DNA of 22,043 bases from a virus: IMG/VR virus record IMGVR_UViG_3300029822_000952; one strand, given 5' to 3'. A model generated the notes under the pieces. That model was not told the DNA's origin. It was given only the letters and a program-made list of their open reading frames with translations, and ran no database searches. The translations under genes and the position numbers were made by a program. Shown one piece after another: positions 1 to 22,043 of the stretch (its first letter is position 1; every line of letters begins with the position of its first letter).

Positions 1-211
1 TCGAGGTGCCGCGGGGCGAGGCGGGGGAGGGGTTGAAAAATCAGAGGGCTGCCTAGCTTCCGGAAGCCTGGAGGATGATACCTACCTGCAAACTCTTATT
101 ATGCATCTAACCGTATACCAGTCCGGGCAGGGGGTAACAGACTAGTCCTCTGTTATTGTTCATTCATCATCTTCATACCCCTGTCCTCCTTATTACCTAA
201 CGATTAAATTC

Positions 212-1098: not shown

Positions 1099-1397
1099 TC
1101 CTCGGCAACATACGCCTCGATCTCGGCCAACTTGTCGGCGACGAACTGGCCGCGCTCGGTCAGTGTGTAGTTGTACGTGAGATAGGGCCGCTCAATGGTC
1201 TCCTTTCGAACCAATCCAGCCTCTATCAACTCTGCCAGGACATCCTTCAGCCTGTAATAATTCCCGGGTATCCCTCGGATGTCCTGGGTCTGTATCATCC
1301 TTGAATCTCGTATGAGCATGATCAGCTGTATGGTTCCCGCCTTCGCCAGTAATGCCATAATCTGACTGCTCAATGGTATTCCCGACTCAAAAAACAT
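1095..1397 (-). CDS. Winged-helix transcriptional regulator (HxlR/MarR-like), putative repressor, 100 aa
   Basis: MFFESGIPL...YYRLKDVLAELIEAGLVRKE...YNYTLTERG: HTH plus wing with the typical Y.LT..G motif; the upstream part of the 218-aa track ORF is antisense to the 1519 gene. Confidence 0.8.
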   Translation of the reverse strand: MFFESGIPLSSQIMALLAKAGTIQLIMLIRDSRMIQTQDIRGIPGNYYRLKDVLAELIEAGLVRKETIERPYLTYNYTLTERGQFVADKLAEIEAYVAED

Positions 1398-1518
1398 TGG
1401 TACAGTTAAGAAGTATTGTATTCTTCTTGTCGAGTAGTATATAGAAATCAATTTATAATCTATAGCTCCAATCACCGCCGACCGTGTACCAATTGGTACT
1501 CGGTATGGAGATGAGAAA
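1398..1518. promoter_or_regulatory. Divergent promoter/operator region (lysogeny switch-like)
   Basis: AT-rich; TTTATAAT 1452-1459; perfect 14-bp palindrome GTACCAATTGGTAC 1486-1499; half-site ATTGGTAC 1396-1403; AAGAAG/CTTCTT inverted repeat 1408-1428. Confidence 0.7.
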
Positions 1519-1869
1519 ATGCAACCCGAACCACAGATTGTGAAACTACTCGTCGCCAACGGCCTCCGGCCGGCGGAGGCGAGAACGCTGGCCTGCTGGA
1601 ACGAAGATGACGACGAGCTGACCCAGCTCGACATGGAGAACATAGCTGGACTGAGGCAGCCAGAGGTTAGTCTGGCCGTCTGCGAGATGCGCCGCCGTGG
1701 CTGGCTGCGACAGATCGCCAAGCGGAAGCCCGAGCGTGGAGCACCCGTCAAGGTCTACACCCTCGCCATACCCATGCGTGACATCGTGCGCGAGATCGTG
1801 GCCGAGCGCACCAGGGAGATAGACCAGGCCCAGGAGCTGACCGTCCAGCTGCTTCAGGCGGTAGCGTGA
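1519..1869 (+). CDS. Winged-helix transcriptional regulator (TrmB/ArsR-like), 116 aa
   Basis: LTQLDMENIAGLRQPEVSLAVCEMRRRGWL...GAPVKVYTL; GGAG upstream; divergent from the 1095-1397 gene. Confidence 0.8.
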   Translation: MQPEPQIVKLLVANGLRPAEARTLACWNEDDDELTQLDMENIAGLRQPEVSLAVCEMRRRGWLRQIAKRKPERGAPVKVYTLAIPMRDIVREIVAERTREIDQAQELTVQLLQAVA

Positions 1870-2048
1870 TGCCAGACTACGAACTTATCAACATAATGGC
1901 CGACCGGGACCGCCGTGAATGTGAGGCCGAGATCAAGGCCGCAGAATACGACGCCTGGGCCGAGCAGATCGCCGCCTTGCGCCTCACTCCCGACATGCCG
2001 CCCGAGGCCATCCACGACATGATCGCCAACGCCCTGGGGGAGGAATGA
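1869..2048 (+). CDS. Hypothetical protein, 59 aa
   Basis: TGATG coupling to the upstream gene and ATGA coupling downstream. Confidence 0.6.
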   Translation: MPDYELINIMADRDRRECEAEIKAAEYDAWAEQIAALRLTPDMPPEAIHDMIANALGEE

Positions 2049-2500
2049 GCATGGTCGCCAAGATACTCGATCCAAGCCTCCTCACCTACGAGCCCCGGAG
2101 GGAAAGGAACTACGAGAAGCTGAAAAAAGCCCTTGGAGAATATGGCGCCCCTGGTGAGTGGGGATTCAAGTACGTCTTCAAGGGCTATGGCTATCGCCAG
2201 TCCACTATGCAGTACGGCGTCGAACTGGCAGTCCCCCAGGGCTGCCAGGACCTCGACGGTGTCAAAGCCGAGGTCCTGGAGATCGTCCAGCACCTAAGGG
2301 CCGCTGAGGGAATAAAGATCATCCAGATAAACGAGCACACCCACGGAGACTTTGGCGTCTGGCAGCTGGAGTACTGTCCAGAGTATGACCGCTGGGACAT
2401 GACCAGGCAATATTACATGCGCGTGGTCGAGAGATACAGCGGCACGCTCGATGAGATGATGGACAGGATCGCCAGAAACCACTACGTGGAGGTGGCGTGA
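2045..2500 (+). CDS. Hypothetical protein, 151 aa
   Basis: GGGGAGG RBS, ATGA overlap, coding-like composition. Confidence 0.7.
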   Translation: MSMVAKILDPSLLTYEPRRERNYEKLKKALGEYGAPGEWGFKYVFKGYGYRQSTMQYGVELAVPQGCQDLDGVKAEVLEIVQHLRAAEGIKIIQINEHTHGDFGVWQLEYCPEYDRWDMTRQYYMRVVERYSGTLDEMMDRIARNHYVEVA

Positions 2501-2502
2501 GC

Positions 2503-2763
2503 ATGTCCGAGGTCAAGATCACCGCCATGCTCGACCTGGTCAAGGGCGATGCGTCCTGGGAGGAGGTCGGCCGGGACCTAGGGGCGTTCCTGGATGCCAA
2601 TACCCCGGAACTCGACCCCGCCGACGTCGTGCTGGAGGTCAGCTACATCCCCGAGGACGGCGACATCCTCCTGCGGCTGCCCGGACACATGAGCATCTGG
2701 CTCCCCAAATGGCAGCTGGAGAAGGCCATAACGATGGCGGTCCAGAAGGAGGCCGGAGTGTGA
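2503..2763 (+). CDS. Hypothetical protein, 86 aa
   Basis: GGAGGTG RBS; stop directly abuts the integrase ATG. Confidence 0.65.
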   Translation: MSEVKITAMLDLVKGDASWEEVGRDLGAFLDANTPELDPADVVLEVSYIPEDGDILLRLPGHMSIWLPKWQLEKAITMAVQKEAGV

Positions 2764-3807
2764 ATGCCGCCCTCCGAACGCAACGCTCTGGAGTTGATCG
2801 ACGAATACCTGGGGAAAAAGGTTCGTCGTGGCCGACTGAGCCAGGGAAAAGCCGACGCATACCGCGCCAGGTTGATGATCGCTCTGGACTCCCTGCGCGA
2901 CGCTGGGCTGGGCTGCACCCCGTCCACCATCGGGGAGCCGGAGATCGAGCACATACTGGACGTGACCTTCGGGCACGAACGCCCCCGCTCGAAGCGCTGG
3001 GACGTGTCGATCCTGAACGGCTACCTCAAGCACTACGGGAACAAGGTCATCGACGAAATGATGATTACCTGGCCCCAGGACGGCCGGGTGAACGTGGACT
3101 GGCTCTCATCGCAGGAAGCGGTGGCCATGCTGGAGGCCGCCCGGCCGGGCATCGAACAACTGGTCGTCCATCTGGAGCTGCGCCTATGGTTGCGTCGCAT
3201 CGAGGTCCAGCGGATGACGCCGGAGGACATCCAAGAGATGAGGATGCTCGATCCGGAGACGGAGGAGGAGTTCGACGGCTTCATCCACATCCACGGCAAG
3301 GGCCGGGCCGGCGGAAAATGGCGGACGCTGCCATACGCTCCGGAGACCAAGGACATACTGCGGGAGTACGACCGCCAGCGCGAACGGATGATCGCCAAGG
3401 CCAGGGAGATCGACCCGCAGGCACAGCTCCCGAGGGACGAGAACGGCCGGGAGGTCTACGTGATCTACCGACGCCGGGGCCGTTTGGGAGCTTACTCGAA
3501 ATCGGGCATCGACAGCATCGTGGCCAGGGTGGCCAAGAGGGCCGGGATAGCCAGGACCATCACCAATCACACGCTGCGCAGGACCGGAGCGCGGATAGCG
3601 TACTTCGCCGGCGTGCTGCTGGTGGAGATCATGGAGGGGCTGGGCCACTCGTCGGAGAAGGAGACCATCAAGTATCTCGGGCTGACCGTGAACGAGCTTT
3701 CCAGGGCGCAGGCGAAGGTGCATCAGTACCTGCAACGCGTCAAGGCGAGAATGAAGGACGGAGCGCCGCCGGTCGCCCCGTCGGAAGGGGCGAGGGTGTC
3801 GGGATGA
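2764..3807 (+). CDS. int: Tyrosine recombinase/integrase, 347 aa
   Basis: Catalytic set present: R (LWLRRIEV), K (HGKGR..GKWR), H-x-x-R (NHTLRR), LGH, Y (TIKYLG). Confidence 0.93.
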   Translation: MPPSERNALELIDEYLGKKVRRGRLSQGKADAYRARLMIALDSLRDAGLGCTPSTIGEPEIEHILDVTFGHERPRSKRWDVSILNGYLKHYGNKVIDEMMITWPQDGRVNVDWLSSQEAVAMLEAARPGIEQLVVHLELRLWLRRIEVQRMTPEDIQEMRMLDPETEEEFDGFIHIHGKGRAGGKWRTLPYAPETKDILREYDRQRERMIAKAREIDPQAQLPRDENGREVYVIYRRRGRLGAYSKSGIDSIVARVAKRAGIARTITNHTLRRTGARIAYFAGVLLVEIMEGLGHSSEKETIKYLGLTVNELSRAQAKVHQYLQRVKARMKDGAPPVAPSEGARVSG

Positions 3808-4049
3808 TTGTACAGAAGTGTTCAGGGCAAAAAAAGAAGGTAGCCAGTAAGGTGGAGTGGGCTCTGCCGGATTTGACCATCCCACCCAGACTGGAAAATC
3901 TGCAAAATGCCCCTGAAAAAACCCTAGAAAATGGCCCGAAAACTCACGCTCTCGCCGACGAAATGAAGCGGTGGGCACATAGGGCGTACATCCTCAACAG
4001 CGCCGTAGCGGCTGAGCGCCTAGTAGTCATCGAGGAGGCTGGACCATGA
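3804..4049 (+). CDS. Possible 81-aa ORF spanning the attP site
   Basis: ATGA overlap with integrase stop and ATGA overlap with the next gene; no recognisable domain. Confidence 0.4.
   Translation: MIVQKCSGQKKKVASKVEWALPDLTIPPRLENLQNAPEKTLENGPKTHALADEMKRWAHRAYILNSAVAAERLVVIEEAGP
3853..3878 (-). other. attP-like site: tRNA 3' end (T-loop, T-stem, acceptor strand)
   Basis: Minus strand reads GGTCAAATCCGGCAGAGCCCACTCCA = TCAAAT T-loop + CCGGC T-stem + AGAGCCC acceptor strand + A discriminator; 46 nt after integrase; T7 tract follows on the minus strand (3835-3829); no 5' tRNA half present. Confidence 0.75.
3891..3943. repeat. Five phased A-tracts beside attP
   Basis: A-tracts start at 3895, 3904, 3916, 3928, 3939 (spacing 9, 12, 12, 11). 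Confidence 0.6.
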
Positions 4050-4186
4050 GCACCATCCTCATGCAGTGCGACCGCTGCCACCGCGTTTACACCGTTGACA
4101 CGGTGCGCGACCGCATGATCTGCCCGGCCTGCCGCGCTCAGACCTCGCAGCAGCTCATCATCCGCCTGCCGGTCGAGGTGATCTGA
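4046..4186 (+). CDS. Zinc-ribbon microprotein, 46 aa
   Basis: Hand translation MSTILMQCDRCHRVYTVDTVRDRMICPACRAQ...EVI; CxxC...CxxC; GAGGAGG RBS; coupled at both ends. Confidence 0.7.
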   Translation: MSTILMQCDRCHRVYTVDTVRDRMICPACRAQTSQQLIIRLPVEVI

Positions 4187-4368
4187 TGGCCGAGCAGTCG
4201 GAACCCATTCACAGGTGCGAATGCGGGTCCGAGGAGGGGGTCACCGAGATGTTGGGCTGCCTGCCGCTCATGTCATGGTGCGCTCGCTGCGGCAAGGCAT
4301 ACGACCCATGGAACGGTTTCATACGGGTGCCAAGCCAGGACCGCCCGCTCATCGAGGAGGTGATCTGA
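4186..4368 (+). CDS. Zinc-finger microprotein, 60 aa
   Basis: HRCECG...WCARCG; GAGGTGA RBS; TGATG coupling. Confidence 0.7.
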   Translation: MAEQSEPIHRCECGSEEGVTEMLGCLPLMSWCARCGKAYDPWNGFIRVPSQDRPLIEEVI

Positions 4369-4674
4369 ATGGCGGCCATCGAGATCTCGTTCCGGCCGGA
4401 CATGCGGGAGGCCATCGTCGCCGGCCGCAAGTGCTGCACATCGCGGACCAGCTGCAAGGGGCGGCCGGGCGACACGTTCGCCATAGGCACTCGCCAGTAT
4501 CGATTGACTGCCGTCCGCCGCCACCCGCTTCACTACGTCGCCTCGGTGCTCTACAAAGATGAGGGCGTCGACAGCCCGGCGGAGTTCGGCGCCCTCTGGG
4601 CCGAGATATACCCAGTACGTGGATGCGACCCGTTCCAGCTCGTCTGGGTCCACCATTTCGAGGAGGTGGCCTGA
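4369..4674 (+). CDS. ASCH-domain protein (YqfB-like), 101 aa
   Basis: ISF...AIVAGRKCCTSR...GD...YKDEG...AEIYP matches the ASCH G-x-K-x-x-T-x-R motif and downstream E. Confidence 0.85.
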   Translation: MAAIEISFRPDMREAIVAGRKCCTSRTSCKGRPGDTFAIGTRQYRLTAVRRHPLHYVASVLYKDEGVDSPAEFGALWAEIYPVRGCDPFQLVWVHHFEEVA

Positions 4675-4835
4675 TGCACACGCCAGGATGCCGGACCTGT
4701 GCCCACCAAGGCCAGATGCCGGACCTGCCGCCCTGCTCCGTATGCAGCCGCACATACTCGCTGCAATGGGAGCCGACGGCCACGGCGGCCACGCTGATCG
4801 GCATCATCCAGGACGACCCGGCCGGGGTGATCTGA
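4674..4835 (+). CDS. Zinc-finger microprotein, 53 aa
   Basis: MHTPGCRTCAH...PPCSVCSR; GAGGAGGTG RBS; TGATG coupling. Confidence 0.65.
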   Translation: MHTPGCRTCAHQGQMPDLPPCSVCSRTYSLQWEPTATAATLIGIIQDDPAGVI

Positions 4836-5041
4836 TGCGCGACCTACCATCTTGGACCGCTGCCCTGGTCGAGGAAGTGGACATCGACGCCGACGCGCAT
4901 GCTCAGGTCGGGCATTGCGACCACGCAGCTTTCTCCTCCGCACATCGGGCGGTCTGCTACGCCCGGCACAGCGCGGCGGATACAGTCATCGTCTACGACC
5001 GCGACGGCAACATAATCTTCCCTGAGGAGGCGAGCCTGTGA
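4835..5041 (+). CDS. Hypothetical protein, 68 aa
   Basis: MRDLPSWTAALVEE...; GGGGTGA RBS; TGATG coupling. Confidence 0.6.
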   Translation: MRDLPSWTAALVEEVDIDADAHAQVGHCDHAAFSSAHRAVCYARHSAADTVIVYDRDGNIIFPEEASL

Positions 5042-5148
5042 GCTACCCCGATTCTTCGGCATCGGTGTTCCTCGCCGTCGAGGTCCTGGCGTTCATGTCG
5101 CTGTGGGCCGGCATGATCCTATGGGCGTTCCTGTCCGTGGCGGGGTAG
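5038..5148 (+). CDS. Small membrane protein, 36 aa
   Basis: GTG start overlapping the upstream TGA, GAGGAGG RBS; hydrophobic SVFLAVEVLAFMSLWAGMILWAFLSVAG. Confidence 0.55.
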   Translation: MSYPDSSASVFLAVEVLAFMSLWAGMILWAFLSVAG

Positions 5149-5156
5149 GTGATCGC

Positions 5157-5501
5157 GTGAAATGCCCTCTCAAGCCCGGCCTAACGTGCCGTGCGGGCCT
5201 CGCAGAGGTCGAGGGGACGCCCTGTCCCGGATGCCCGGCAGGACGCGCTAACGGCCGTCCTGCGGCCTCCGGCGACCTGCCCCTATCGCCCCCTCTAGCA
5301 GCCCTCCGGAGGCAGCTCCGGGACCGCCTCGCGGAGGTCGAAACGACCCCCCGGAGAGTGCCAAAAGTAAAGACTACGAGTAAAGACCTTGTAAAGAGCA
5401 AAAGTAAAGACTTTTTTTCGGCGTCTGGCTCCGAGGCGAGTAAAGACCTCGAAGTAAAGACCCGAGTAAAGACCCTTTACTTTGCCGGGGTGGCTCCATG
5501 A
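5157..5501 (+). CDS. Cys-rich protein (CPLKPG.C...CPGC), 114 aa; 3' half overlaps the iteron array
   Basis: GTG start after AGGTGAT; N-terminus paralogous to 13746-13922. Confidence 0.6.
   Translation: MKCPLKPGLTCRAGLAEVEGTPCPGCPAGRANGRPAASGDLPLSPPLAALRRQLRDRLAEVETTPRRVPKVKTTSKDLVKSKSKDFFSASGSEASKDLEVKTRVKTLYFAGVAP
5366..5481 (+). repeat. Iteron-like AGTAAAGAC array (putative replication origin)
   Basis: Exact copies at 5366, 5379, 5403, 5439, 5453, 5465; variant GTAAAGAG at 5391; inverted CTTTACT at 5475-5481; further copy at 5753 inside the next gene. Confidence 0.8.
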
Positions 5502-6697
5502 AGAACATCCGCCTCCACCCCACCCGCCGGAGGGTCTACGAACTGCTAGTAGACGGGGCTGCCCCGGGGGTCGGTCTTGCCCCTACCAGCATCATTGATC
5601 TGATGAACAAGGAAGGCAAGATAACACCGCAGCGGGTTTATCAGATTATCAGGGAGTTGAGGAAAGAAGGCTATGTCCGGCAGATAACGGGCTCCAGCAT
5701 GTACGTCCGTGGTCGTAAGGCCGCGATGCTGGACTATCTCATCAGCTCGGAGAGTAAAGACCTTGTAAACCCCTCTAACGGAGGGGGTCCGATTGCCCAT
5801 TATCCGAGTCAAGGGCATAATAATGGACCCGCAACCCCAATTTTTGAGACCTTCGTCCCGACCGCCGAGGCCCACGTTAACGGCCGTTACATCTACCCCG
5901 TCCTGCGCGTCGGGGAGTTATACGAGCCGTTCCGCGTCCGGGACGAGCAGGGCGAGATCTCCGAGTGCGTGGTATGGGACCCCGAGCCACGACAGCTCCG
6001 AGGCGTGACCTACTACACCGGCCGGGTGCCCATCCACGGCGGCATGACCATCCAGTATTGGCAAGGGGCCGTCGAGCAGTCCCTCCATATCTGGCCGACG
6101 CCGGTGACGCTGCTCCCGGGACGCGTCCACGAGGCCGAGGGCGACCTGGCAGCCAAGGCCCAGGACGCCGCCAACTGGCTCGGCCGCTTCGGCGGCTGGC
6201 GTCTGGGCGTGCCAAGATTTTCGAGCAACGAGGACGGCCCGGGCATCCATTACGCCTGCAATGATCCGGCCATAGTCGGCAATTTCCCCGAGGGATTCAA
6301 GCCCGACAACGGGGCCGGATACTGGCTGGACAGCACCCCGCCCCCCAGGTCCTACGAGACCACCGACGCTGAGCGCATGGAGGCCACCGTCAATTTTGCG
6401 GCCATCACCCGCGACCTCAAGCGGGGCCAGGCATCCCTCGGCCAGGGCGTCGCCGCGATGGAGGCCGCCATCGAGCGCCGCCAGCTGGAGGTGCTACAGC
6501 TCCGCTATGACGCCCTGGGCCAGCAGGCCGAGCTATGGCAGGCCATCGGCGACATGTCGGAGATACAGCTCCGCACCATCCACGCCCAGCACATCCAGGC
6601 GCACGTCGGCGGCCCAGGCCCTGGACCATCAGACCCCGCCACCGCCAGCACCACGGACAGTGACCCCGACGCCCGCAAGGGAGGCATGTACCAATGA
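5498..6697 (+). CDS. wHTH-domain protein, putative replication initiator, 399 aa
   Basis: N-terminal wHTH (ITPQRVYQIIRELRKEGYV), C-terminal coiled coil; directly downstream of the iterons and contains one. The Rep role is inferred from context only. Confidence 0.55.
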   Translation: MKNIRLHPTRRRVYELLVDGAAPGVGLAPTSIIDLMNKEGKITPQRVYQIIRELRKEGYVRQITGSSMYVRGRKAAMLDYLISSESKDLVNPSNGGGPIAHYPSQGHNNGPATPIFETFVPTAEAHVNGRYIYPVLRVGELYEPFRVRDEQGEISECVVWDPEPRQLRGVTYYTGRVPIHGGMTIQYWQGAVEQSLHIWPTPVTLLPGRVHEAEGDLAAKAQDAANWLGRFGGWRLGVPRFSSNEDGPGIHYACNDPAIVGNFPEGFKPDNGAGYWLDSTPPPRSYETTDAERMEATVNFAAITRDLKRGQASLGQGVAAMEAAIERRQLEVLQLRYDALGQQAELWQAIGDMSEIQLRTIHAQHIQAHVGGPGPGPSDPATASTTDSDPDARKGGMYQ

Positions 6698-7113
6698 GGA
6701 CAGACTACGACGACACCATAGCACAGATCGAGCAGGAGTACCGCAGAGGAGAGTACAGCGACCTGGACGCCGACCCCGAGGCCGAGGCCAGGGCCAGGTC
6801 CAGGCAGGAGCAGGAGGCGCTAGACAAGGACCGCAAGCGGGCGCGAGGATCCAGGAGGCTCGCAGAGGTCGCCTTCACCCCCAGTGGCCTGCCGGCCATC
6901 CGCAACGACGGCCGCACCCTGGCCGACGTGGAGCTGGAGCTGGCGGCCGGTCGGTACGGCTACCGCGCCGAGCCCTGGACCGGCCCTACCGGCCCAATGG
7001 CCGTCCCCGAGGTGGCCGACTCCCCGCAGCGGTTCCGCGCTCTCATCGACGCCTGGGAGCGCGACCCGGCCGCCTACCTGGCCGAGCTGCGCCGCAGGGG
7101 GCTGGTGCGATGA
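6694..7113 (+). CDS. Hypothetical protein, 139 aa
   Basis: GGGAGG RBS, ATGA coupling at both ends. Confidence 0.7.
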   Translation: MRTDYDDTIAQIEQEYRRGEYSDLDADPEAEARARSRQEQEALDKDRKRARGSRRLAEVAFTPSGLPAIRNDGRTLADVELELAAGRYGYRAEPWTGPTGPMAVPEVADSPQRFRALIDAWERDPAAYLAELRRRGLVR

Positions 7114-7280
7114 TCGAGCTGACGCGCCGACGCTATCGCTGCCCGGACCCATGCGTCTACAAATGCGTCATTGAGATGACATCCCAGTATGTCAAAAATC
7201 CCATCCAATGCGCCTACGGTCGTGGATGGATATACGACTGGATACTGCTCGATGAGCCGGCCGGGGGTGAGCGGCGATGA
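7110..7280 (+). CDS. Cys-rich microprotein, 56 aa (paralog of 13922-14089)
   Basis: MIELTRRRYRCPDPCVYKC...C...IYDWILLDEPAGGERR. Confidence 0.7.
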   Translation: MIELTRRRYRCPDPCVYKCVIEMTSQYVKNPIQCAYGRGWIYDWILLDEPAGGERR

Positions 7281-7431
7281 TCCAGCAGGGCGAGATCCCC
7301 GACTGCTACGGTATCGAGTGCTGCGATGAGTGCGCGATCGACTGCCCATTTTACATGGACTGCGAGGCCGACAGCCGAGAGGACGAGGATGACGACTGGG
7401 TTGGCGATGGCCTGGGGGGTGAGTGAGCATG
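7259..7431 (+). repeat. 173-bp exact direct repeat, copy 1
   Basis: Identical by eye to 14454-14626 (offset 7195). Confidence 0.95.
7277..7426 (+). CDS. Acidic Cys-rich microprotein, 49 aa, copy 1
   Basis: MIQQGEIPDCYGIECCDECAIDCPFYMDCEADSREDEDDDWVGDGLGGE; RBS and ATGA coupling. Confidence 0.7.
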   Translation: MIQQGEIPDCYGIECCDECAIDCPFYMDCEADSREDEDDDWVGDGLGGE

Positions 7432-8199
7432 TGCAACTACTGGAGCTGCATCCTCCACCGCGACGGCCGCGTGCTCCATGTGCGCGATGAGGACAGCCAC
7501 GAGGCGATCGTACAGCACTACCATCTCGACGACAACCGGCTGACCGACCGCGATTTCATCCGCATCGAGATCACGCCCGGCGACGCACTGAGCCGCGATC
7601 GGGCAGATTGGAGCTATAGGGTCGATGAGCCCCGGACCCTGCCGGACTGGTACGCCAACGACACCAGGCGCTGGGACGCCGTCGTATGGGCCGAGTGGGA
7701 GCGCGTGATGTCCGAGCAGATATGGGACACGCCCTGGTATGGCCGCGTGACGACCATGCGCGACCGTCTCGCCGCCCTCCGCCCCGGAGAGGCAGCGGTA
7801 TCTAGATCCGCCGTCCGCCCCGCGCTCGAAGAGCATCGCAAGCGCCTGATGGCGCTGGACGGCGAGCAACGCCAGTGGGCCATCTCGGAGGTGCGTTTTC
7901 ACAGTCCAGCAGAGTGGGCATCGGTCAGGGACTCGGTCTGGGACTCGGTCTGGGACTCGGTCTGGGACTCGGTCTGGGACTCGGTCTGGGACTCGGTCTG
8001 GGACTCGATCTGGGCATCGGTCAGGGCATCGGTCTGGGCATCGGTCTGGGCATCGGTCAGGGACTCGGTGGTCCATGAGGATGATGCCAACTACGGCCTG
8101 CCGCTGCTCGACATGCTGGCGGCCGGATGTGTGCTCTACGGTATCGATGACGATGGTGTCGCCCACGTGATCATGGTCGGCAAGGATGGAGGTGAGTGA
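7429..8199 (+). CDS. Tetrapeptide (W/R-D/A-S-V) repeat protein, 256 aa
   Basis: ATG after GGGGGTGAGTGAGC; MCNYWSCIL...DSHE N-terminus of a kind seen in phage repeat proteins; 13 tetrapeptide repeats. Confidence 0.75.
   Translation: MCNYWSCILHRDGRVLHVRDEDSHEAIVQHYHLDDNRLTDRDFIRIEITPGDALSRDRADWSYRVDEPRTLPDWYANDTRRWDAVVWAEWERVMSEQIWDTPWYGRVTTMRDRLAALRPGEAAVSRSAVRPALEEHRKRLMALDGEQRQWAISEVRFHSPAEWASVRDSVWDSVWDSVWDSVWDSVWDSVWDSIWASVRASVWASVWASVRDSVVHEDDANYGLPLLDMLAAGCVLYGIDDDGVAHVIMVGKDGGE
7915..8070 (+). repeat. 12-bp tandem repeat, 13 units (consensus TGGGACTCGGTC)
   Basis: WASV RDSV (WDSV)x5 WDSI WASV RASV WASV WASV RDSV. Confidence 0.95.
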
Positions 8200-8201
8200 G
8201 C

Positions 8202-8366
8202 ATGACCGGCACCCAATGCCACAAGTGCGGCCGCTGGATGACCGCCCAGCCGGAAACCGACATCATCCACGGAGAGCGGGTATGGTTTGGGACGACCTAT
8301 TATTGCGAGCGGTGCGACGACTCGATCTATGTAGACCGCCCAGCCCCGGCCGGGGGTGAGCAGTGA
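8202..8366 (+). CDS. Zinc-ribbon microprotein, 54 aa
   Basis: MTGTQCHKCGRW...YYCERCDD...GGEQ; GGAGGTGA RBS. Confidence 0.7.
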   Translation: MTGTQCHKCGRWMTAQPETDIIHGERVWFGTTYYCERCDDSIYVDRPAPAGGEQ

Positions 8367-8542
8367 TGGCTCGAGTCGTGCGATGCAAACACTGCCGCAA
8401 GGAGGTCGATGAGGCGACCGCCGCCAACTCCATCCAGTGCCTGGGAGCAGTGTTCTGCGACATGCAATGCTGGAGAAGATGGTCACGGGCCAGGGCACAG
8501 GCGGAACATGCCGAGGAAGAAGGAGATGATCCCCATGCCTGA
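8366..8542 (+). CDS. Zinc-finger microprotein (CxxC...FCxxxC, TRASH/FCS-like), 58 aa
   Basis: Hand translation MARVVRCKHCRKEV...AVFCDMQCWRRW; TGATG coupling. Confidence 0.65.
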   Translation: MARVVRCKHCRKEVDEATAANSIQCLGAVFCDMQCWRRWSRARAQAEHAEEEGDDPHA

Positions 8543-8957
8543 ATCGGACTGCGCCCTGACCGCTCTCGGCATGACGCTGGCCGACCGCATCGGGGGCGGC
8601 TGGTCTCAGCCCGAATATGAGACGTGCGACATATGCGGACGTCCGAACGAGGACGATGAGCATCACGTCACCAGCCGCCGGGGGAGGTCCGGCAACTGGT
8701 ACTATTGCAAGTCCTGCCTGGCCGGCGAGATCCTACGAGGGGAACCGTGCCCATACGTCCACATCAGCGAGTACAACGGATACGAGTATTGCAGCCATCC
8801 AGACGTTGGGGGCATGGGCTATCATCCATATTGTCGCCCGGATCCCCGCTCATCAGGCTTCCGCTGCCCCCTCGGGCTGTCGGGCAAGTGCTGGCAGCCA
8901 GTCAATAAGGCCGAGCCGGAGCGGGACGGCCGCCAAGCCACGCTGGAGGGATTCTAA
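8535..8957 (+). CDS. Cys-rich zinc-binding protein, 140 aa
   Basis: MPESDC...CDICG...YCKSCL...; start re-set from 8409 to ATG 8535 after AGGAGA. Confidence 0.65.
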   Translation: MPESDCALTALGMTLADRIGGGWSQPEYETCDICGRPNEDDEHHVTSRRGRSGNWYYCKSCLAGEILRGEPCPYVHISEYNGYEYCSHPDVGGMGYHPYCRPDPRSSGFRCPLGLSGKCWQPVNKAEPERDGRQATLEGF

Positions 8958-9136
8958 TGCAAAAACTAGGCCACATGTATTTTCGGTTAAAATCGAGTAC
9001 CTGTCCCGTCACTAGCCAGCGGCCGGAGCGGGAGCGGTGCGAGCAGTGCAAGCACATGATCGTCAGGGGCCCCGCCACCGGCGAGGGCCGCGCCATCCCT
9101 GAGCCAACCATGTTCTGCCGGCATCGGAGGGCCTAA
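8957..9136 (+). CDS. Cys-containing microprotein, 59 aa
   Basis: MQKLGHMYF...CPVT...CEQCKH...FCRHRRA; TAATG coupling, GGAGG RBS. Confidence 0.6.
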   Translation: MQKLGHMYFRLKSSTCPVTSQRPERERCEQCKHMIVRGPATGEGRAIPEPTMFCRHRRA

Positions 9137-9137
9137 G

Positions 9138-9308
9138 ATGACCGCCCCATGCACCTGGTGCGGCCGGCCCACCGAGCCGGGACAGCGCCGCTACGTGGAC
9201 CGATACGTCACCTGGTGGGTATGCGTCGACTGCTACCGGGCGACTCGCCGCGCCCCGGTGCCGGCCATGCCGCTCGGGAGCGCCCAGAACAAGGGGGGAT
9301 TGGCGTGA
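9138..9308 (+). CDS. Zinc-finger microprotein, 56 aa
   Basis: MTAPCTWCGR...WVCVDCYR; GGAGG RBS. Confidence 0.65.
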   Translation: MTAPCTWCGRPTEPGQRRYVDRYVTWWVCVDCYRATRRAPVPAMPLGSAQNKGGLA

Positions 9309-9484
9309 GCCGTCGGTGCTCTAACTGCTACTGGGTCGATTGGGGGGACGTCGAGGATCTCGACAACGACCCATGCGAGCATTGCCGCTATGATCCCGGA
9401 CGATACAACTGGCGGTCTAGGGACTCTCCCGTCACATGGATATACTACCGGGAGAGCCGCAGCGTACGGAGGCCAGCGCCATGA
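9305..9484 (+). CDS. Zinc-finger microprotein, 59 aa
   Basis: GTG start overlapping TGA; RRCSNCYW...PCEHCRY. Confidence 0.6.
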   Translation: MSRRCSNCYWVDWGDVEDLDNDPCEHCRYDPGRYNWRSRDSPVTWIYYRESRSVRRPAP

Positions 9485-9669
9485 ATTCCGAACCCGTTAC
9501 ATGGAGATGCAACCGGCCGGGCTGTCCGGATGCTTTGTATTCGGACGGCTGCCGGTGCACATGCCCCGACTGGCCGGGACGTAAGTGCCCCGCCAATCCT
9601 CGCCGAAAAGCGAATTGGGTGAAGGAGGGCGCGGACCTGGATGGCGAGAAGATGGGGGAATTTGCATGA
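9481..9669 (+). CDS. Cys-rich microprotein, 62 aa
   Basis: MNSEPVTWRCNRPGC...GCRCTCPDW...KCP; ATGA coupling at both ends. Confidence 0.6.
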   Translation: MNSEPVTWRCNRPGCPDALYSDGCRCTCPDWPGRKCPANPRRKANWVKEGADLDGEKMGEFA

Positions 9670-9986
9670 GCAAAAAACGAGCTAAGAAGCACGATATGTA
9701 TGGCTGCTTACAGCCTCCAAGGGGGCAACCCGTTTGGATGCACGACGATGAGGAAATCATAGGCGAGATAGGAGGTCCAAAGTTTGCCTTTGAGTTCTTC
9801 ATTCACGCCGACGGGTTCGGAGTTCTAAATCTTATTACACCCGGAGGGCAGAGAGTCGATAGAATCCTCATCAAAGAGGGGAGATTTGTTCAGGACGAAG
9901 ATTGGATTAGGTTAAATAACACCGCTCAAAAGTGTAACCCCTCACCGGACCGCCGGACTGCTGGGTTACAGTCGGAGGGATTGTAA
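9666..9986 (+). CDS. Hypothetical protein, 106 aa (AT-richer than its neighbours)
   Basis: ATGA overlap at 9666; MSKKRAKKHDMYG... Confidence 0.6.
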   Translation: MSKKRAKKHDMYGCLQPPRGQPVWMHDDEEIIGEIGGPKFAFEFFIHADGFGVLNLITPGGQRVDRILIKEGRFVQDEDWIRLNNTAQKCNPSPDRRTAGLQSEGL

Positions 9987-9996
9987 AGGAGATTAC

Positions 9997-10033
9997 ATAT
10001 ACACATAATGTATATATACGCATAATGTATATA
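9997..10033 (+). promoter_or_regulatory. Internal promoter with two tandem palindromic operators
   Basis: ATATAC(A/G)-CATAA-TGTATAT at 9997-10015 and 10014-10032; CATAATGTATATA direct repeat at 10004 and 10021; TATATATA at 10011-10018. Confidence 0.65.
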
Positions 10034-10055
10034 CTACAATTAGAGGTTGAGCAAG

Positions 10056-10355
10056 ATGGTGACCAAGAAGAAAATTGAGGAAATGTATGCGAGCAAGAAC
10101 GAGGGCCACGTCCCCGCAGCCGTGATGAGGCAGCTGGACAAATACGAGGAGGACGCCAAGGGCATCCACACGACGGACATGTCCATGCTGTTGCAGGACG
10201 CCCCTGCGGTGCGGTATCTGGAGGATTACGAGGTCGTCAGGGAGATCACCGATGGCATCCAGAGGGAGTACATGGACCTAGGACGCATCATGTACATGAG
10301 CGAGGGCCTGCTGCGCGATCTCAACGGCATGGGCGACCTGCCCGGCGGCATGTGA
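10056..10355 (+). CDS. Hypothetical protein, 99 aa (alternative TTG start 10047)
   Basis: GAGGTTGA RBS; first gene after the internal promoter. Confidence 0.65.
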   Translation: MVTKKKIEEMYASKNEGHVPAAVMRQLDKYEEDAKGIHTTDMSMLLQDAPAVRYLEDYEVVREITDGIQREYMDLGRIMYMSEGLLRDLNGMGDLPGGM

Positions 10356-10360
10356 TTCCG

Positions 10361-10444
10361 ATGAAGGCGACCATCGGCCTGGAGCTGTTCGGCGAGGTAC
10401 AGGGGAAGCTGATGGAGATAATAGAGCAGGGGCCATCGCAATGA
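10361..10444 (+). pseudogene. 27-aa ORF carrying a duplicate of the 5' end of the 10590 gene
   Basis: MKATIGLELFG then diverges (EVQGKLMEIIEQGPSQ). Confidence 0.5.
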
Positions 10445-10593
10445 GCATCACCATACACCGCTGCAAGCGATGCGGGCATGAGTGGGCGCAGCGCGGCGAG
10501 AGCAAGCCGAAGACATGCCCCAACCCCGCCTGCCGCTCCCCCTATTGGGACAAGGAGCGCACCAGGCCGCGTCCGGAGGCCCGGAAGGCATGA
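10441..10593 (+). CDS. Zinc-ribbon microprotein, 50 aa
   Basis: HRCKRCGHEW...KTCPNPACRSPYWD, a common archaeal/viral zinc-ribbon pattern; ATGA coupling at both ends. Confidence 0.75.
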   Translation: MSITIHRCKRCGHEWAQRGESKPKTCPNPACRSPYWDKERTRPRPEARKA

Positions 10594-11006
10594 AGGCGAC
10601 CATCGGCCTGGAGCTGTTCGGCGACAACAATCGGCAACGTCTTGAAGCTGAGAGGCGGATGATTAATGAGCTATCGCCCGGCTTAGGCGACCAAGTCATC
10701 GGCCAGGACCCCGACAGCATATGGATTGCTGAGATCATTGGCTACAACGACCGCTCTGAATACCAACGCCGGTACCTGCGAGGGCGACGGGATTATACCA
10801 AGGCCAACTCCAAAGGCTCTCGGGGCGTTTTTATGTGGTACATCCTGGAGGCCGGAAAGACCTACGAGGTAAGTTCCAGAGCATCATGGTCGCGCATGGA
10901 CCGATATTTCTGCATCGTGTCTCCAGAGGGCGACATCATAAGGATAAGCAAAGAGGAGGTGGACGCATGGCTGAGCCTGCTTCATGGAAGCGAGAACTGG
11001 GCATAG
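10590..11006 (+). CDS. Conserved hypothetical viral protein upstream of ibrAB, 138 aa
   Basis: DYTKANSKGSRGV...GKTYEV...RYFC motif; overlaps the IbrA start by 40 nt. Confidence 0.7.
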   Translation: MKATIGLELFGDNNRQRLEAERRMINELSPGLGDQVIGQDPDSIWIAEIIGYNDRSEYQRRYLRGRRDYTKANSKGSRGVFMWYILEAGKTYEVSSRASWSRMDRYFCIVSPEGDIIRISKEEVDAWLSLLHGSENWA

Positions 11007-12181
11007 ACGTTCTGACCGCCGCCAGGCAGCGCATCGCCTGGGTGTTCGACAATTTCCCACGCATATACGTCTCGTTCAGCGCTGGAAAGGACAGCACGGT
11101 CATGCTGCACCTGGTGGCCGAGGAGGCGCGTCGCCGCGGCAAGAAGATCGGCGTGCTTCTCGTCGATCTCGAAGGGCAGTACAAACTGACGATCGATCAC
11201 GGGCTGAGCATGTTCCGCGAGTACGAGGACGTGATCGAGCCGTTCTGGGTCTCGCTCCCTCTGCTGCTGCGCAATGCCGTGTCGCAGTACCAGCCCCGCT
11301 GGACGTGCTGGGACCCCGAGGCCCGCAAGGACTGGATACGCCAGCCTCCGGAGATCGCCATCACCGACGAGCGGTTCTTTCCGTTCTTCCGGCGCGGCAT
11401 GGAGTTCGAGGAGTTCGTTCCCGAGTTCGGCCACTGGTACGGGGGCGGCAAGCTGACCGCCTGCTTCGTGGGCATCCGCACCGACGAATCGCTCAACCGC
11501 TGGCGGACCATCGCCTCCTCGACCAAGCAGCGCATGGACGGTAAGGGCTACACCACCTGGATCGGAGAGGCGCTCTACAACGTCTATCCGATCTACGACT
11601 GGCGGACCGAGGACATCTGGCGCTATCACGGCAAATATCCCGACAGGCAGCATAACCAGCTCTACGACCGCATGCACCAGGCGGGGCTGACGGTGCATCA
11701 GATGCGCATCTGCCAGCCGTACGGTGACGACCAGCGCAAGGGACTATGGCTGTTTCACATCATCGAGCCGGAGACGTGGTCGCGCGTCGTCGCCCGCGTC
11801 AACGGCGCGAACCAGGGCGCGCTGTACGCTCAGGAGAACGGCAACATCCTGGGCATCAACAAGGTCACGCTGCCGCCCGGGCATACATGGCAGAGCTTCT
11901 CGATATTGCTTCTGCAATCGATGCCGGAGCGGACGGCGGACCATTACAAGGACAAGATCGCGGTGTTCCTGCACTGGTGGTCTCAGAGGGGCTACCCGGA
12001 CGGCATACCGGACGACGGGGAGATGAGCAAGGACGCCCCGAGCTGGAAGCGCATCTGTAAATCGTTGCTCCGCAACGACTACTGGTGCAAGGGGCTGTCG
12101 TTCACGCAGACAAGCTCAGCGGCATACGAGCGCTACAAGAAGATGATGAAGGTGAGGCGGAATAAATGGAACCTGATCTAG
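10967..12181 (+). CDS. ibrA: IbrA-like PAPS-reductase/PP-loop protein with DUF3440-like C-terminus, 404 aa
   Basis: YVSFSAGKDS PP-loop, GIRTDESLNR, YPIYDW, MRICQPYG, WKRICK.LL.ND motifs; GAGGAGGTG RBS before ATG 10967. Confidence 0.88.
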   Translation: MAEPASWKRELGIDVLTAARQRIAWVFDNFPRIYVSFSAGKDSTVMLHLVAEEARRRGKKIGVLLVDLEGQYKLTIDHGLSMFREYEDVIEPFWVSLPLLLRNAVSQYQPRWTCWDPEARKDWIRQPPEIAITDERFFPFFRRGMEFEEFVPEFGHWYGGGKLTACFVGIRTDESLNRWRTIASSTKQRMDGKGYTTWIGEALYNVYPIYDWRTEDIWRYHGKYPDRQHNQLYDRMHQAGLTVHQMRICQPYGDDQRKGLWLFHIIEPETWSRVVARVNGANQGALYAQENGNILGINKVTLPPGHTWQSFSILLLQSMPERTADHYKDKIAVFLHWWSQRGYPDGIPDDGEMSKDAPSWKRICKSLLRNDYWCKGLSFTQTSSAAYERYKKMMKVRRNKWNLI

Positions 12182-20201: not shown

Positions 20202-20614
20202 AGGAGGAGGAGTATCGGGAGAACCTAGCGCACTTCCTGATCAACGAGGTCAAACTAGCATTGGGCCTGCAGGAGCAATACGAGCCCTACCGCGCTCGGG
20301 AGGACTACCTGACCAGGTACTTCCCAACCCTCGATGAGCGGGCGAGGAAGGCAGTCCTGTACGAGCTCAAGGAGGAGGCGAGCCGCAAGGGCACTGCCTC
20401 TATGGCCCGGGTGCTGTCCGACTCTCCCGAGGTCCTGGCCGGCGCGTTTTCGAACCTCCGCAGGATGCAGACCAAGCCCACGCAGAAAGCCATCATCTCC
20501 CGCACCCCGCCCCGCTCGGCCCGGGAGATAATGGACGACCAATTCATCCTGGAACGCGAGCCGGATGAGGAGGAGCCCGACGCCGACACACTGGAGGAGG
20601 TCGAGACCCAATGA
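20198..20614 (+). CDS. Hypothetical helical protein with acidic C-terminus, 138 aa
   Basis: ATGA coupling at both ends. Confidence 0.75.
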   Translation: MKEEEYRENLAHFLINEVKLALGLQEQYEPYRAREDYLTRYFPTLDERARKAVLYELKEEASRKGTASMARVLSDSPEVLAGAFSNLRRMQTKPTQKAIISRTPPRSAREIMDDQFILEREPDEEEPDADTLEEVETQ

Positions 20615-21945
20615 TCCACGTCCGGGAATCAATTTTCGAGGTATGCCGGACCAAAACGCATAGGGATCCCGGGAAGAAATTGAAGGATTTGACTGAGAGA
20701 GTGCTCCGGGATCTCACCCCGCCCCTCGACTCCGAGATGTTCCCAAAGGACCGCATTGACCTGATCACCGTGGCCGCCTTCGGCCAGCCTGGCTCTGGCA
20801 AAACAACCCTTATCGAGCACCTGGCCGGCCACTTTGCCAAGGTCTATGACGACCAGACCAACATCGTCGGCATACGGGGTTCTCGATTCTCGGACCTGGC
20901 AGCCAAGATGGACGACCGCCCCGTCCAGGTGCTCGTGGTCGATGACGCCAAGGCCATGTCGAGAGGTGGGTTCAAAAATATCGATGATATGAATGAACTG
21001 GACGACATACGGCACCGATATAAGCAGATCCGAGTAACGGCCGGCCATCCCCCGAGCGGCTATATAGTAGCCATCCACGTCAAGCAGCGCTATAAGGACC
21101 TCGACATCAAATTCCGTCAGGCCCACTACAGATTTTTTAAGACCACAGCTGGACCCGACGACAAATGGGATATGATCTCGCAAATCGGCCCGGAAGCCTA
21201 TGGATTCCTGGAGCGCATCATGCGCCGCATCAATGAGCTTCGGGACCAAACTGCCAAGGGGGAGTGTATCGTGACCGTGGATTGGATTCGTGGGAGCGGC
21301 CGCTTTTACTCTAGTCTCCCCGAGAGATCTAACGTTAACTGGCTCCGCGTCGAGGACTCCGGCGAGCTCCACCGCACCGCCGACCTCGCTCCCTCGGCCA
21401 TCATCGAGGAGGGCGGGGCCTTCGTGGTCGATACCTCCCCCATCCTCGACCTGATCAGACAGGACGGGGGCGAGTGGCCCCTGAAGGTCAGGGTGTTCGA
21501 GGCCTACCAGGGCGCCGCTTCTCAGTCCCAGGTGGCCGAGCAATACAAGATCTCCCAGGGCTCGGTGAGCAATTACAGCAAGGAGGTCAAGGGCATGATA
21601 TCCAAGATTGTCGGGGAAGCCTATGAGAAATGGGCGGCTAAGCAATGGGAGAAGGAGCTCGGAGTCAAGAAGGTCGAGAGGGACGGGAGCAAGGGCGAGC
21701 CGGACATCATGGTCTATCACGACTCCGGCCGCGTGACCGTAGTGAGCTGCAAATGCTATTACGACAACAAAACCACGAGCATCCCGATTAAGGCGATCGA
21801 GCCCGAGCTCATCAAAGCGCGGGAACTCGCAGCGGCCGGATTATTAGAGCGCCTAGTGGTCGACTTTAATAATATCGCCAAAAAATCCAGACAACTCCGG
21901 GGCATCGATCCTGAGCATCACGATAGCGTTATCACGTTCAGGTAA
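20611..21945 (+). CDS. P-loop ATPase (Zot/pI/A32-like, FtsK-HerA clade candidate) fused to HTH and PD-(D/E)xK-like nuclease, 444 aa
   Basis: Walker A GQPGSGKT, Walker B VLVVDD, HVKQ...LD..FR motif; SQSQVAEQYKISQGSVSNY HTH; GEPDIMV...VSCK. Confidence 0.75.
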   Translation: MIHVRESIFEVCRTKTHRDPGKKLKDLTERVLRDLTPPLDSEMFPKDRIDLITVAAFGQPGSGKTTLIEHLAGHFAKVYDDQTNIVGIRGSRFSDLAAKMDDRPVQVLVVDDAKAMSRGGFKNIDDMNELDDIRHRYKQIRVTAGHPPSGYIVAIHVKQRYKDLDIKFRQAHYRFFKTTAGPDDKWDMISQIGPEAYGFLERIMRRINELRDQTAKGECIVTVDWIRGSGRFYSSLPERSNVNWLRVEDSGELHRTADLAPSAIIEEGGAFVVDTSPILDLIRQDGGEWPLKVRVFEAYQGAASQSQVAEQYKISQGSVSNYSKEVKGMISKIVGEAYEKWAAKQWEKELGVKKVERDGSKGEPDIMVYHDSGRVTVVSCKCYYDNKTTSIPIKAIEPELIKARELAAAGLLERLVVDFNNIAKKSRQLRGIDPEHHDSVITFR

Positions 21946-22043
21946 ATGCCCCCCTTAATAGGCAAACAAACAAGGGCTTCCGGTGCCCCTCCCGACCCTC
22001 CGGACGGCCCTTTCCTTTCCCCCTCCCCGGCGATTCTTCAACC

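Follow-up and report, generated by a model that had tools for sequence, protein, structure and literature searches.

The DNA described here is a 22,043-nucleotide (nt) stretch of viral sequence (IMG/VR record IMGVR_UViG_3300029822_000952), hereafter called the window, and the feature under study is the site at which this virus would insert into the genome of its host, together with the small gene that spans that site. The locus includes int, which encodes a tyrosine integrase matching the tyrosine recombinase catalytic domain PF00589 (E 1.1e-7, 32.2 bits against a cut-off of 27.1). At 50 nt beyond the int stop codon lies the 20-mer TCAAATCCGGCAGAGCCCAC on the minus strand (3857-3876), which corresponds to the last 19-20 nt of tRNA-Val of the Methanomassiliicoccales. 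Read on that strand, it comprises T55 of the T-loop, the 3' strand of the T-stem (CCGGC), the 3' strand of the acceptor stem (AGAGCCC), the discriminator A73 and one additional base (C), and the bases that precede it are not derived from a tRNA. An open reading frame (ORF) of 81 amino acids (aa) runs across this tRNA-derived core in the direction of int. Its ATG (3804-3806) overlaps the TGA of int (3805-3807), and its own TGA (4047-4049) overlaps the ATG (4046-4048) of the next gene.

An earlier reading of the letters alone, referred to below as the original prediction, had described the site as a single copy of a tRNA 3' end that starts at the T-loop, is followed by a T7 tract and lies within an ORF overlapping both the integrase stop and the following start. 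All of these elements were found in place. The core occurs once in the window, even when three mismatches are allowed (shuffled sequences are expected to contain none), and ARAGORN calls no complete tRNA in the 22 kb. The T7 tract is the A7 run at 3829-3835 of the plus strand, located 21 nt past the discriminator on the tRNA strand. The GC content falls from about 0.64 to 0.51 in the stretch that holds the core.

Information on the nature of this site comes from integrated relatives, which the original prediction had proposed to look for and which exist in several genomes, e.g., L001, G025, L027/L072 and G018. L001, a metagenome-assembled genome of the Methanomethylophilaceae, encodes an integrase 77% identical to that of the window; 50 nt downstream, the opposite strand holds a full tRNA-Val(GAC), and a second, partial copy of the tRNA 3' end lies 5.8 kb away. 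The same arrangement occurs in L012 and L013 (integrase 77% identical, full tRNA-Val(GAC) 50 nt past int). Nucleotide homology between the window and L001 extends through the integrase and ends exactly at 3876, a break within the T-loop that places the start of the tRNA copy where it had been predicted. Furthermore, window positions 2747-3876 align with the int-side end of the L001 element, up to the rebuilt tRNA, while 3857-4096, which includes the next 220 nt past the core, align with its far (attL) end.

The order of genes in the integrated relatives is attL, small genes, replication gene, structural genes, int and rebuilt tRNA, i.e., that of the window opened at the core. The integrated copies are flanked by direct repeats of the core, and ARAGORN calls an intact tRNA-Val at their attR. 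Because the gene order of these relatives is a permutation of the window cut at the core, the sequence at 3857-3876 is attP, the attachment site of the free form, rather than attL or attR, in agreement with what had been proposed. The displaced attL copy of both L001 and G018 has TTTTA in place of the TTTGA of the tRNA, which puts the exchange 3' of C56.

The predicted acceptor sequence, GGGCTCT, is present in the tRNA-Val(TAC) of G020, one among the 260 genomes of the host order, and the 3' end of this tRNA is the exact 19-mer of the window. A scar of 95 nt adjoins the same tRNA in G020 (L011, 72-165) and consists of the last integrase codons and the P arm at 89% identity, the remainder of the element being gone. 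In G001 all three tRNA-Val isoacceptors have the matching 3' end, with one mismatch to the window core. The proviruses measure 13.8 kb in G025, 14.9 kb in L027/L072, where two exact copies of the core are found, and 15.4 kb in G018. Integration leaves the integrase gene whole, as full-length int adjoins the tRNA in G025, L027 and L022; in the last of these, which encodes an integrase 87% identical to that of the window and has the exact core, the contig stops inside the tRNA. Homologs of the integrase at E < 1e-50 are present in 21 of the 260 genomes, and in those genomes the tRNA always occupies the opposite strand, at a distance of 50-100 nt downstream of the int stop.

Whether the ORF bridging attP is a gene can be judged in the lineages in which both arms are known and the integrase is intact, namely the window, L068, G025, L027 and L062. 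In these five lineages exactly one frame is open from an NTG placed on the int stop, through the P arm, the core and the P' arm, and ends with a stop located at, or close to, the next gene; the remaining two frames contain 1-8 stops. The probability of such an open frame, as determined by dinucleotide shuffling, is 0.0085-0.05 per lineage. The overlap at the int stop is ATGA in the window, TTGA in G025 and L027, and GTGA in L068 and L062, and the bridging stop overlaps the next start in four of four lineages. The two halves of the frame lie 14-19.5 kb apart in the proviruses G025, L027/L072 and L062, and rejoin in frame in the inferred attP.

A further comparison is that between G025 and L027, which use a common host site. 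Their P arms are 56 and 55 nt long and they read the core in different frames (EWAHPDL vs SGPTRI), and both are nevertheless open from the TTG on the int stop to a conserved C-terminal domain, so that a change of 1 nt in the P arm has been matched on the other side. These compensating frame changes support the view that continuity of the frame across attP is under selection. On this comparative evidence the conserved feature is the continuity of the frame and not the peptide encoded by the core, which fits a translational coupling to int.

The conserved domain has the pattern K-x3-L-x3-(I/M)(K/R)xWA-x6-L-x6-(G/E)RLV(V/I), as deduced from two alignments. Where the window and L001 differ, the change is mostly in a third codon position, and the conserved Arg has the codon CGC in the window but AGG in G025. 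An exhaustive profile search of 1.84 billion representative proteins retrieved only 10 members of the bridging family; those examined all open with residues that result from reading a tRNA 3' end in antisense. For the portion beyond the core, AlphaFold2 predicts a single long helix (mean pLDDT 73), with no DNA-binding fold. A word-indexed protein search with the 81-aa ORF returned no homolog besides itself, Pfam and PHROGs gave no match, and tblastn of a family member against a phage collection produced chance matches only. Taken across the lineages compared, the 81-aa bridging ORF is a real gene.

Two other interpretations of the ORF were considered and given up. One held the upstream third to be non-coding, on the basis of a 1-nt spacer difference, the low GC content at third codon positions (GC3) and the lack of a homolog in the word search; it was dropped after the frame compensation in L027/L072 and the shuffling results. 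The other, a mini-gene of 28 aa starting at ATG 3963, was rejected as in-frame conservation with third-position changes reaches upstream of this codon in L001 and G025.

The bridging gene is part of a longer array, and the positions of all features are collected in Table 1. Twelve genes, from 1519 to 5148, abut or overlap one another and span attP. Promoters were sought with a weight matrix for the B recognition element (BRE) and TATA box, constructed from 23 host tRNA promoters in the loci analyzed (training median 15.6 bits, minimum 5.5). Several of the top sites are positioned immediately ahead of gene blocks, namely those at 1444, 15312 and 10003, at the pilin leader and at 5402-5418 (9.7-11.2 bits). 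The original prediction had named a strong promoter between 3880 and 4046 as the observation that would speak against it; the best TATA-like score within 3808-4046 is 5.7 bits, so that no such promoter is predicted. Inside int the best score is 2.7 bits, although a matrix derived from tRNA promoters may miss a start internal to int. Runs of four or more T are absent from the plus strand between 1500 and 5411, and other runs of at least five T in the window lie mainly at or near the ends of gene blocks. Since neither a TATA-like site nor a T-run separates int from the small genes past attP, integration should split the 12-gene unit.

Table 1. Position of the integration site, the bridging gene and the surrounding features in the window
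Feature	Position	Strand	Evidence or remark
Candidate promoter of the int operon	1444..1457	+	Best BRE/TATA-like site ahead of the operon; 12.7 bits, 4th best in the window
Integrase operon	1519..3807	+	Genes of 116, 59, 149 and 86 aa, then int (2764-3807); ORFs and gene calls on the identical contig L020
attP-bridging coding sequence (81 aa)	3804..4049	+	Complete only in the circular form
P arm	3808..3856		Gives the 3' trailer and T7 terminator (A7 at 3829-3835, plus) of the rebuilt tRNA
attP core	3857..3876	-	tRNA-Val T55 to A73 and one more base; codons 18-25 of the bridging coding sequence
P' arm	3877..3962		Five CTGNAAAA(T)-like units at 3890-3944
Conserved C-terminal domain of the bridging protein	3936..4046	+	Predicted as a single long helix
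46-aa protein	4046..4186	+	Two CxxC motifs (CDRC, CPAC); weak zinc-ribbon Pfam matches
Five small genes (60, 101, 53, 68 and 36 aa)	4186..5148	+	Contiguous or overlapping; gene calls on the 100%-identical contig L020
T7 run, candidate terminator of the attP-crossing unit	5412..5418	+	Within the iteron region; sole run of at least 4 T in 1500-5500
Putative replication protein (399 aa)	5498..6697	+	N-terminal MarR-like winged helix, central beta-rich domain, C-terminal long helix

Evidence for a free form is available as well. The attP junction, together with an identical 81-aa product, recurs in no fewer than 10 contigs that come from at least six samples, and virus genes flank it on both sides in every case. 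Samples containing this virus include SRR1562008, SRR1562009, ERZ724039, ERZ795074 and ERZ27283067. In one of them, NODE_1658 (L066/L067, 24,455 nt), which carries a near-identical int-attP cassette, the first 772 nt are the same as the last 772 nt. This terminal overlap indicates that NODE_1658, a sister genome of the window, is circular with a size of about 23.7 kb.

Taken together, these data make it quite probable that the window represents the free circular form of a temperate pleolipovirus-like virus whose core recombines with a tRNA-Val gene, and whose integration splits both the bridging gene and the transcript that contains it. The tyrosine integrase would recombine the core with the identical 3' end of the host tRNA-Val gene. 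In the resulting provirus, the viral P arm would provide the 3' end of the tRNA together with its T7 terminator; int would adjoin the restored tRNA, and the genes located right of the core would be carried to the far end. The 12 genes are presumed to form one transcript, probably starting from the promoter near 1444, and on the simplest reading integration would sever a single transcript that extends from about 1470 to 5412. Integration clearly disconnects the bridging gene and the six small genes from the int side, and it would leave the C-terminal half of the bridging gene and these six genes with neither an upstream promoter nor translational coupling to int. From this layout we infer that the array is co-transcribed and that its distal part is silenced on integration. 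By analogy with the haloarchaeal pleolipovirus SNJ2, discussed below, the downstream block might be active only after excision, as an early or replication-supporting module.

Several observations weigh against this explanation, and they are considered here along with the alternatives that they favor. One of these alternatives, which we regard as unlikely, places attP in a non-coding spacer: the small gene would start at or after the core (TTG 3873 or later), its upstream third would be open by chance, its coupling to int would arise by accident wherever the codon before TGA ends in A, G or T, and the gene would stay intact on integration. The spacer between int and the core is 53 nt in the window vs 52 nt in L022, in the G020 scar and in the decayed L001, and the shorter form would break the frame unless compensated in the P' arm; among the lineages the spacers measure 53, 52, 52, 56, 55 and 52 nt, lengths that are not conserved modulo 3, and each of the three frames is used to read the core somewhere in the family. 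A start codon right past the core in G025, L062 and L059 could yield a shorter protein from the provirus. The GC3 of the bridging ORF is 0.56 (0.51 for 3804-3962), compared with 0.69-0.93 in the neighboring genes, and its codon score is near zero; this low value may reflect constraints that the att arms impose at the DNA level. An NTGA overlap is also expected in about three-quarters of the genes that end in TGA. However, chance does not readily account for a frame that is open back to the int stop in five of five lineages, each at the shuffling probabilities given above, nor for the maintenance of this frame in G025 and L027 by compensating changes. Moreover, in the interval that separates the core from the conserved domain L027 offers no ATG, GTG or TTG at which a shorter gene could begin, and a matching layout is both expressed and essential in SNJ2.

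About equally unlikely is a second alternative, in which attP and the bridging gene are real and the split has no regulatory role, as a weak promoter in the P' arm, e.g., in the A-rich repeats at 3890-3944, would drive the downstream genes. TATA-like scores of 5.1-5.7 bits do occur at 3896 and 3918, but they stand at the very bottom of the range of the host promoters. G018 is the exception among the relatives, with a proper TATA box of 10.5 bits at the matching place, the boundary between the core and P', while four of the five attL junctions of relatives have no good TATA-like site. The transcription start mapped inside int of SNJ2 implies that promoters of this kind can be hard to predict. 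A related difficulty concerns the putative replication protein (Rep), whose gene is preceded by about 350 nt of iterons, by the T7 run at 5412 and by a moderate TATA-like site (5402-5418). Being located beyond the T7 run and beside this site, the gene may be transcribed on its own. Of the earlier claim that integration would separate the promoter and integrase from the downstream genes, the part concerning the bridging gene and the six small genes stands, and the putative Rep may lie outside the unit that is split.

That the junction is instead the joint of two tandem integrated copies, or of elements stacked at one tRNA, which would have the same sequence as attP, is very improbable: the window is linear, with no terminal overlap that would close it into a circle, L020 runs 111 nt past the window start without a match to the window end, and L021 and L022 end inside the core, but the 22 kb hold neither a tRNA 5' half nor a host gene, the sister genome that shares the 1128-bp int-attP block at full identity forms a circle through its 772-nt overlap, one contig has 171x coverage according to its name, and at least 10 contigs are in the attP form. 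The reading in which integration splits the bridging gene and its operon appears, among those compared, as the best-supported model.

The arms of attP have features of their own. A by-eye alignment of eight P arms from attR and attP sites shows that the P arm carries the conserved motifs TGTACAnAAGTGTTCAGGGCAAAA and AGCCAG(A/T), and the P' arm has a GCAAAATGCCCC motif at 25 nt from the core, a distance that is equal in three other lineages. The CTGNAAAA(T)-like units of the P' arm are spaced by 9-13 nt and are located within the bridging gene; the P arm contains AGCCAG, and the P' arm CTGG. The CTGNAAAA(T)-like units, AGCCAG and CTGG may be arm-type binding sites or may produce bent DNA.

The choice of the target tRNA varies with the clade of the integrase. 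Integrases at least 48% identical to that of the window are associated with tRNA-Val (L059, L050, L027 and L044), those at 38-45% with tRNA-Ile (L055, L056, L060, L062 and L063), and those at 39-41% with tRNA-Met (L064 and L065). L023, with a 59%-identical integrase, has an inverted copy of a tRNA-Val-like 3' end at 11040-11075 in place of the tRNA; its att site looks rearranged, and it was left out of the comparison for this reason. As for phages, tblastn of the integrase against a phage collection gave matches to Bacillus phages only, covering 34% of the query; a scan of a viral contig collection with the integrase returned no match, and neither did a megablast of the window against phages.

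Some of the integrated relatives are degraded or carry other genes. The L001 element (5254-11108) is a 5.8-kb remnant in which the integrase (10001-11040) is broken into two frames and the remnant of the bridging gene contains stops. L022 encodes, at 1102-6548, a BglI/SfiI-like endonuclease and a methyltransferase, plus an Eco57I-type enzyme; with these restriction-modification genes the element looks like a restriction-modification cargo island and not like a virus.

The int-attP region also appears to be mobile among these viruses. A block of 1128 bp (2924-4051), covering attP, the bridging gene and the greater part of int, shows 100% identity between L045-L047 on one side and the window and L048 on the other. 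The flanks of this block differ by 11-16%, the structural modules are unrelated, and the edges are sharp (2923/2924 and 4051/4052). Complete identity with sharp edges amid diverged flanks points to a recent exchange of the int-attP cassette. The ends of the assemblies are informative in a different respect: the window (1-20 and 21946-22043) and the 13,973-nt variant contig L048 break in one C-rich stretch between the ATPase and pilin genes, a region that may be variable or hard to assemble. The adjacent stretch at 20611-21945 has weak AAA/NTPase Pfam matches. NODE_1658 ends within a gene bearing tandem repeats of about 459 nt (PKD-type domains).

The 399-aa putative Rep has homologs in seven of the 260 genomes of the host order. 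Its winged helix was recognized by VIA (Z 9.0, root-mean-square deviation 3.1, 84 residues aligned), and its central domain (residues 117-290) gives only weak matches to the fold of the TATA-binding protein (TBP; Foldseek E 0.03-0.07). No Rep_trans structure was listed by the Foldseek and VIA searches of the protein, the N-terminal winged helix having filled the VIA list. A TBP fold has been reported for the Rep_trans and Rep-Arvir initiators, and the order of the domains is swapped in the 399-aa protein.

The layout of this locus has clear precedents. In many haloarchaeal pleolipoviruses, attP lies within a coding sequence (CDS) that begins at the end of int, ends on the gene of a CxxC protein and is complete only in the circle; examples are Halfvol1, Halfgib1, Humcor1, Harhisp1, SNJ2 and HRPV-9 (Dyall-Smith et al. 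2021, section 3.7, Fig. 9; PMC7911831). The window resembles these viruses in having three genes tightly packed on one strand and a CDS that is whole only in the circle, and its layout agrees with that of the haloarchaeal bridging CDS at every point, the CxxC partner included. It differs in its host, which belongs to the Methanomassiliicoccales (Thermoplasmatota) and not to the Halobacteria, and in its target, tRNA-Val. Its bridging protein constitutes a small family of its own and resembles nothing in the phage collection at a detectable level.

A second close parallel is SNJ2. On excision of this virus, the int operon is linked through the attP-spanning orf26 to seven compact ORFs, the last of which encodes Rep, in the order orf3-orf2-int-orf26-orf25...orf19, and these genes are co-transcribed from a start mapped inside int and not at the first promoter of the operon (PMC13107129, 2026). 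ORF26 is expressed, every ORF is required for replication, and the last gene of the operon encodes Rep-Arvir, which combines a TBP-like nuclease domain with a MarR-like winged helix (PMC13107129). The window shares with SNJ2 the succession of an integrase, an attP-spanning ORF and compact small ORFs, with a co-directed putative replication protein bearing a winged helix downstream, in two halves that integration separates. Conversely, the putative Rep of the window follows the iterons and the T7 run instead of closing the operon, and has its winged helix at the N-terminus; the core is 20 nt and in tRNA-Val, compared with 14 bp in tRNA-Met for SNJ2. Co-transcription, the start site, the expression of ORF26 and the requirement for the ORFs were measured in SNJ2, and co-transcription is predicted for the window. 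The link of the attP-crossing block to replication comes from this literature, and the idea of a replication off-switch would hold for the window by analogy.

In the SNJ2-type int-attP cassette, int is preceded by accessory genes (Wang et al. 2018; PMC5861418). The window is similar, with small genes that overlap and are co-oriented with int and with attP directly after it, and it is similarly modular, as the 1128-bp identical block occurs in otherwise diverged viruses of the group. Pleolipovirus-like proviruses of the Methanomassiliicoccales have been mentioned previously (PMC10919331). The mechanism is thus already described for pleolipoviruses and demonstrated in SNJ2; what is new is the host phylum, along with what looks like a separate family of bridging protein.

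Other systems in which integration interrupts a gene are more distant. In SSV-type ("suicidal") integration of fuselloviruses, attP lies in a coding sequence that is split at the tRNA gene, and the gene split in SSV1 is that of the integrase itself. The integrase of the window stays whole and the split gene is its downstream neighbor, so that the arrangement is pNOB8-type rather than SSV-type. In mycobacteriophages, Broussard and colleagues are said to have described, in 2013, an attP inside the repressor gene, the shortened form of the repressor reportedly being active and stable. The window has in common with this integration-dependent immunity that attP lies in a gene whose product is changed by integration, but the gene in question encodes a small helical protein after int and, although the protein may still be a regulator, nothing marks it as a repressor. 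The original prediction had invoked integration-dependent switches of phages; the haloarchaeal pleolipovirus CDS and the SNJ2 operon are closer precedents (PMC7911831, PMC13107129).

A more ambitious interpretation, possible but on balance doubtful, is that selection has maintained the bridging gene, in pleolipovirus-like viruses from two archaeal phyla, as a dedicated sensor of genome topology. The gene would be translated by ribosomes arriving from int, and its helical C-terminal domain, which belongs to a family always abutting a tRNA-derived core (Val, Ile or other), would switch on the early or replication block only in the excised circle. If this were true, the compensating frame changes of G025 and L027 would be a signature of that selection.

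Independently of the sensor interpretation, the order of int, attP-bridging gene and CxxC gene is not confined to haloarchaea and recurs in viruses of the Methanomassiliicoccales, which are methanogens of the gut and of digesters. Their version has an unrelated-looking bridging protein and uses tRNA-Val, tRNA-Ile and other tRNAs as targets. In practical terms, the att site and the target tRNA are now available for this virus group, free forms can be told from integrated forms in metagenomes, and the minimal int-attP cassette could become an integration tool for methanogens that lack genetics. As to the biology of these temperate viruses, the compensating frame changes support the view that the topology of the genome gates the expression of its genes.

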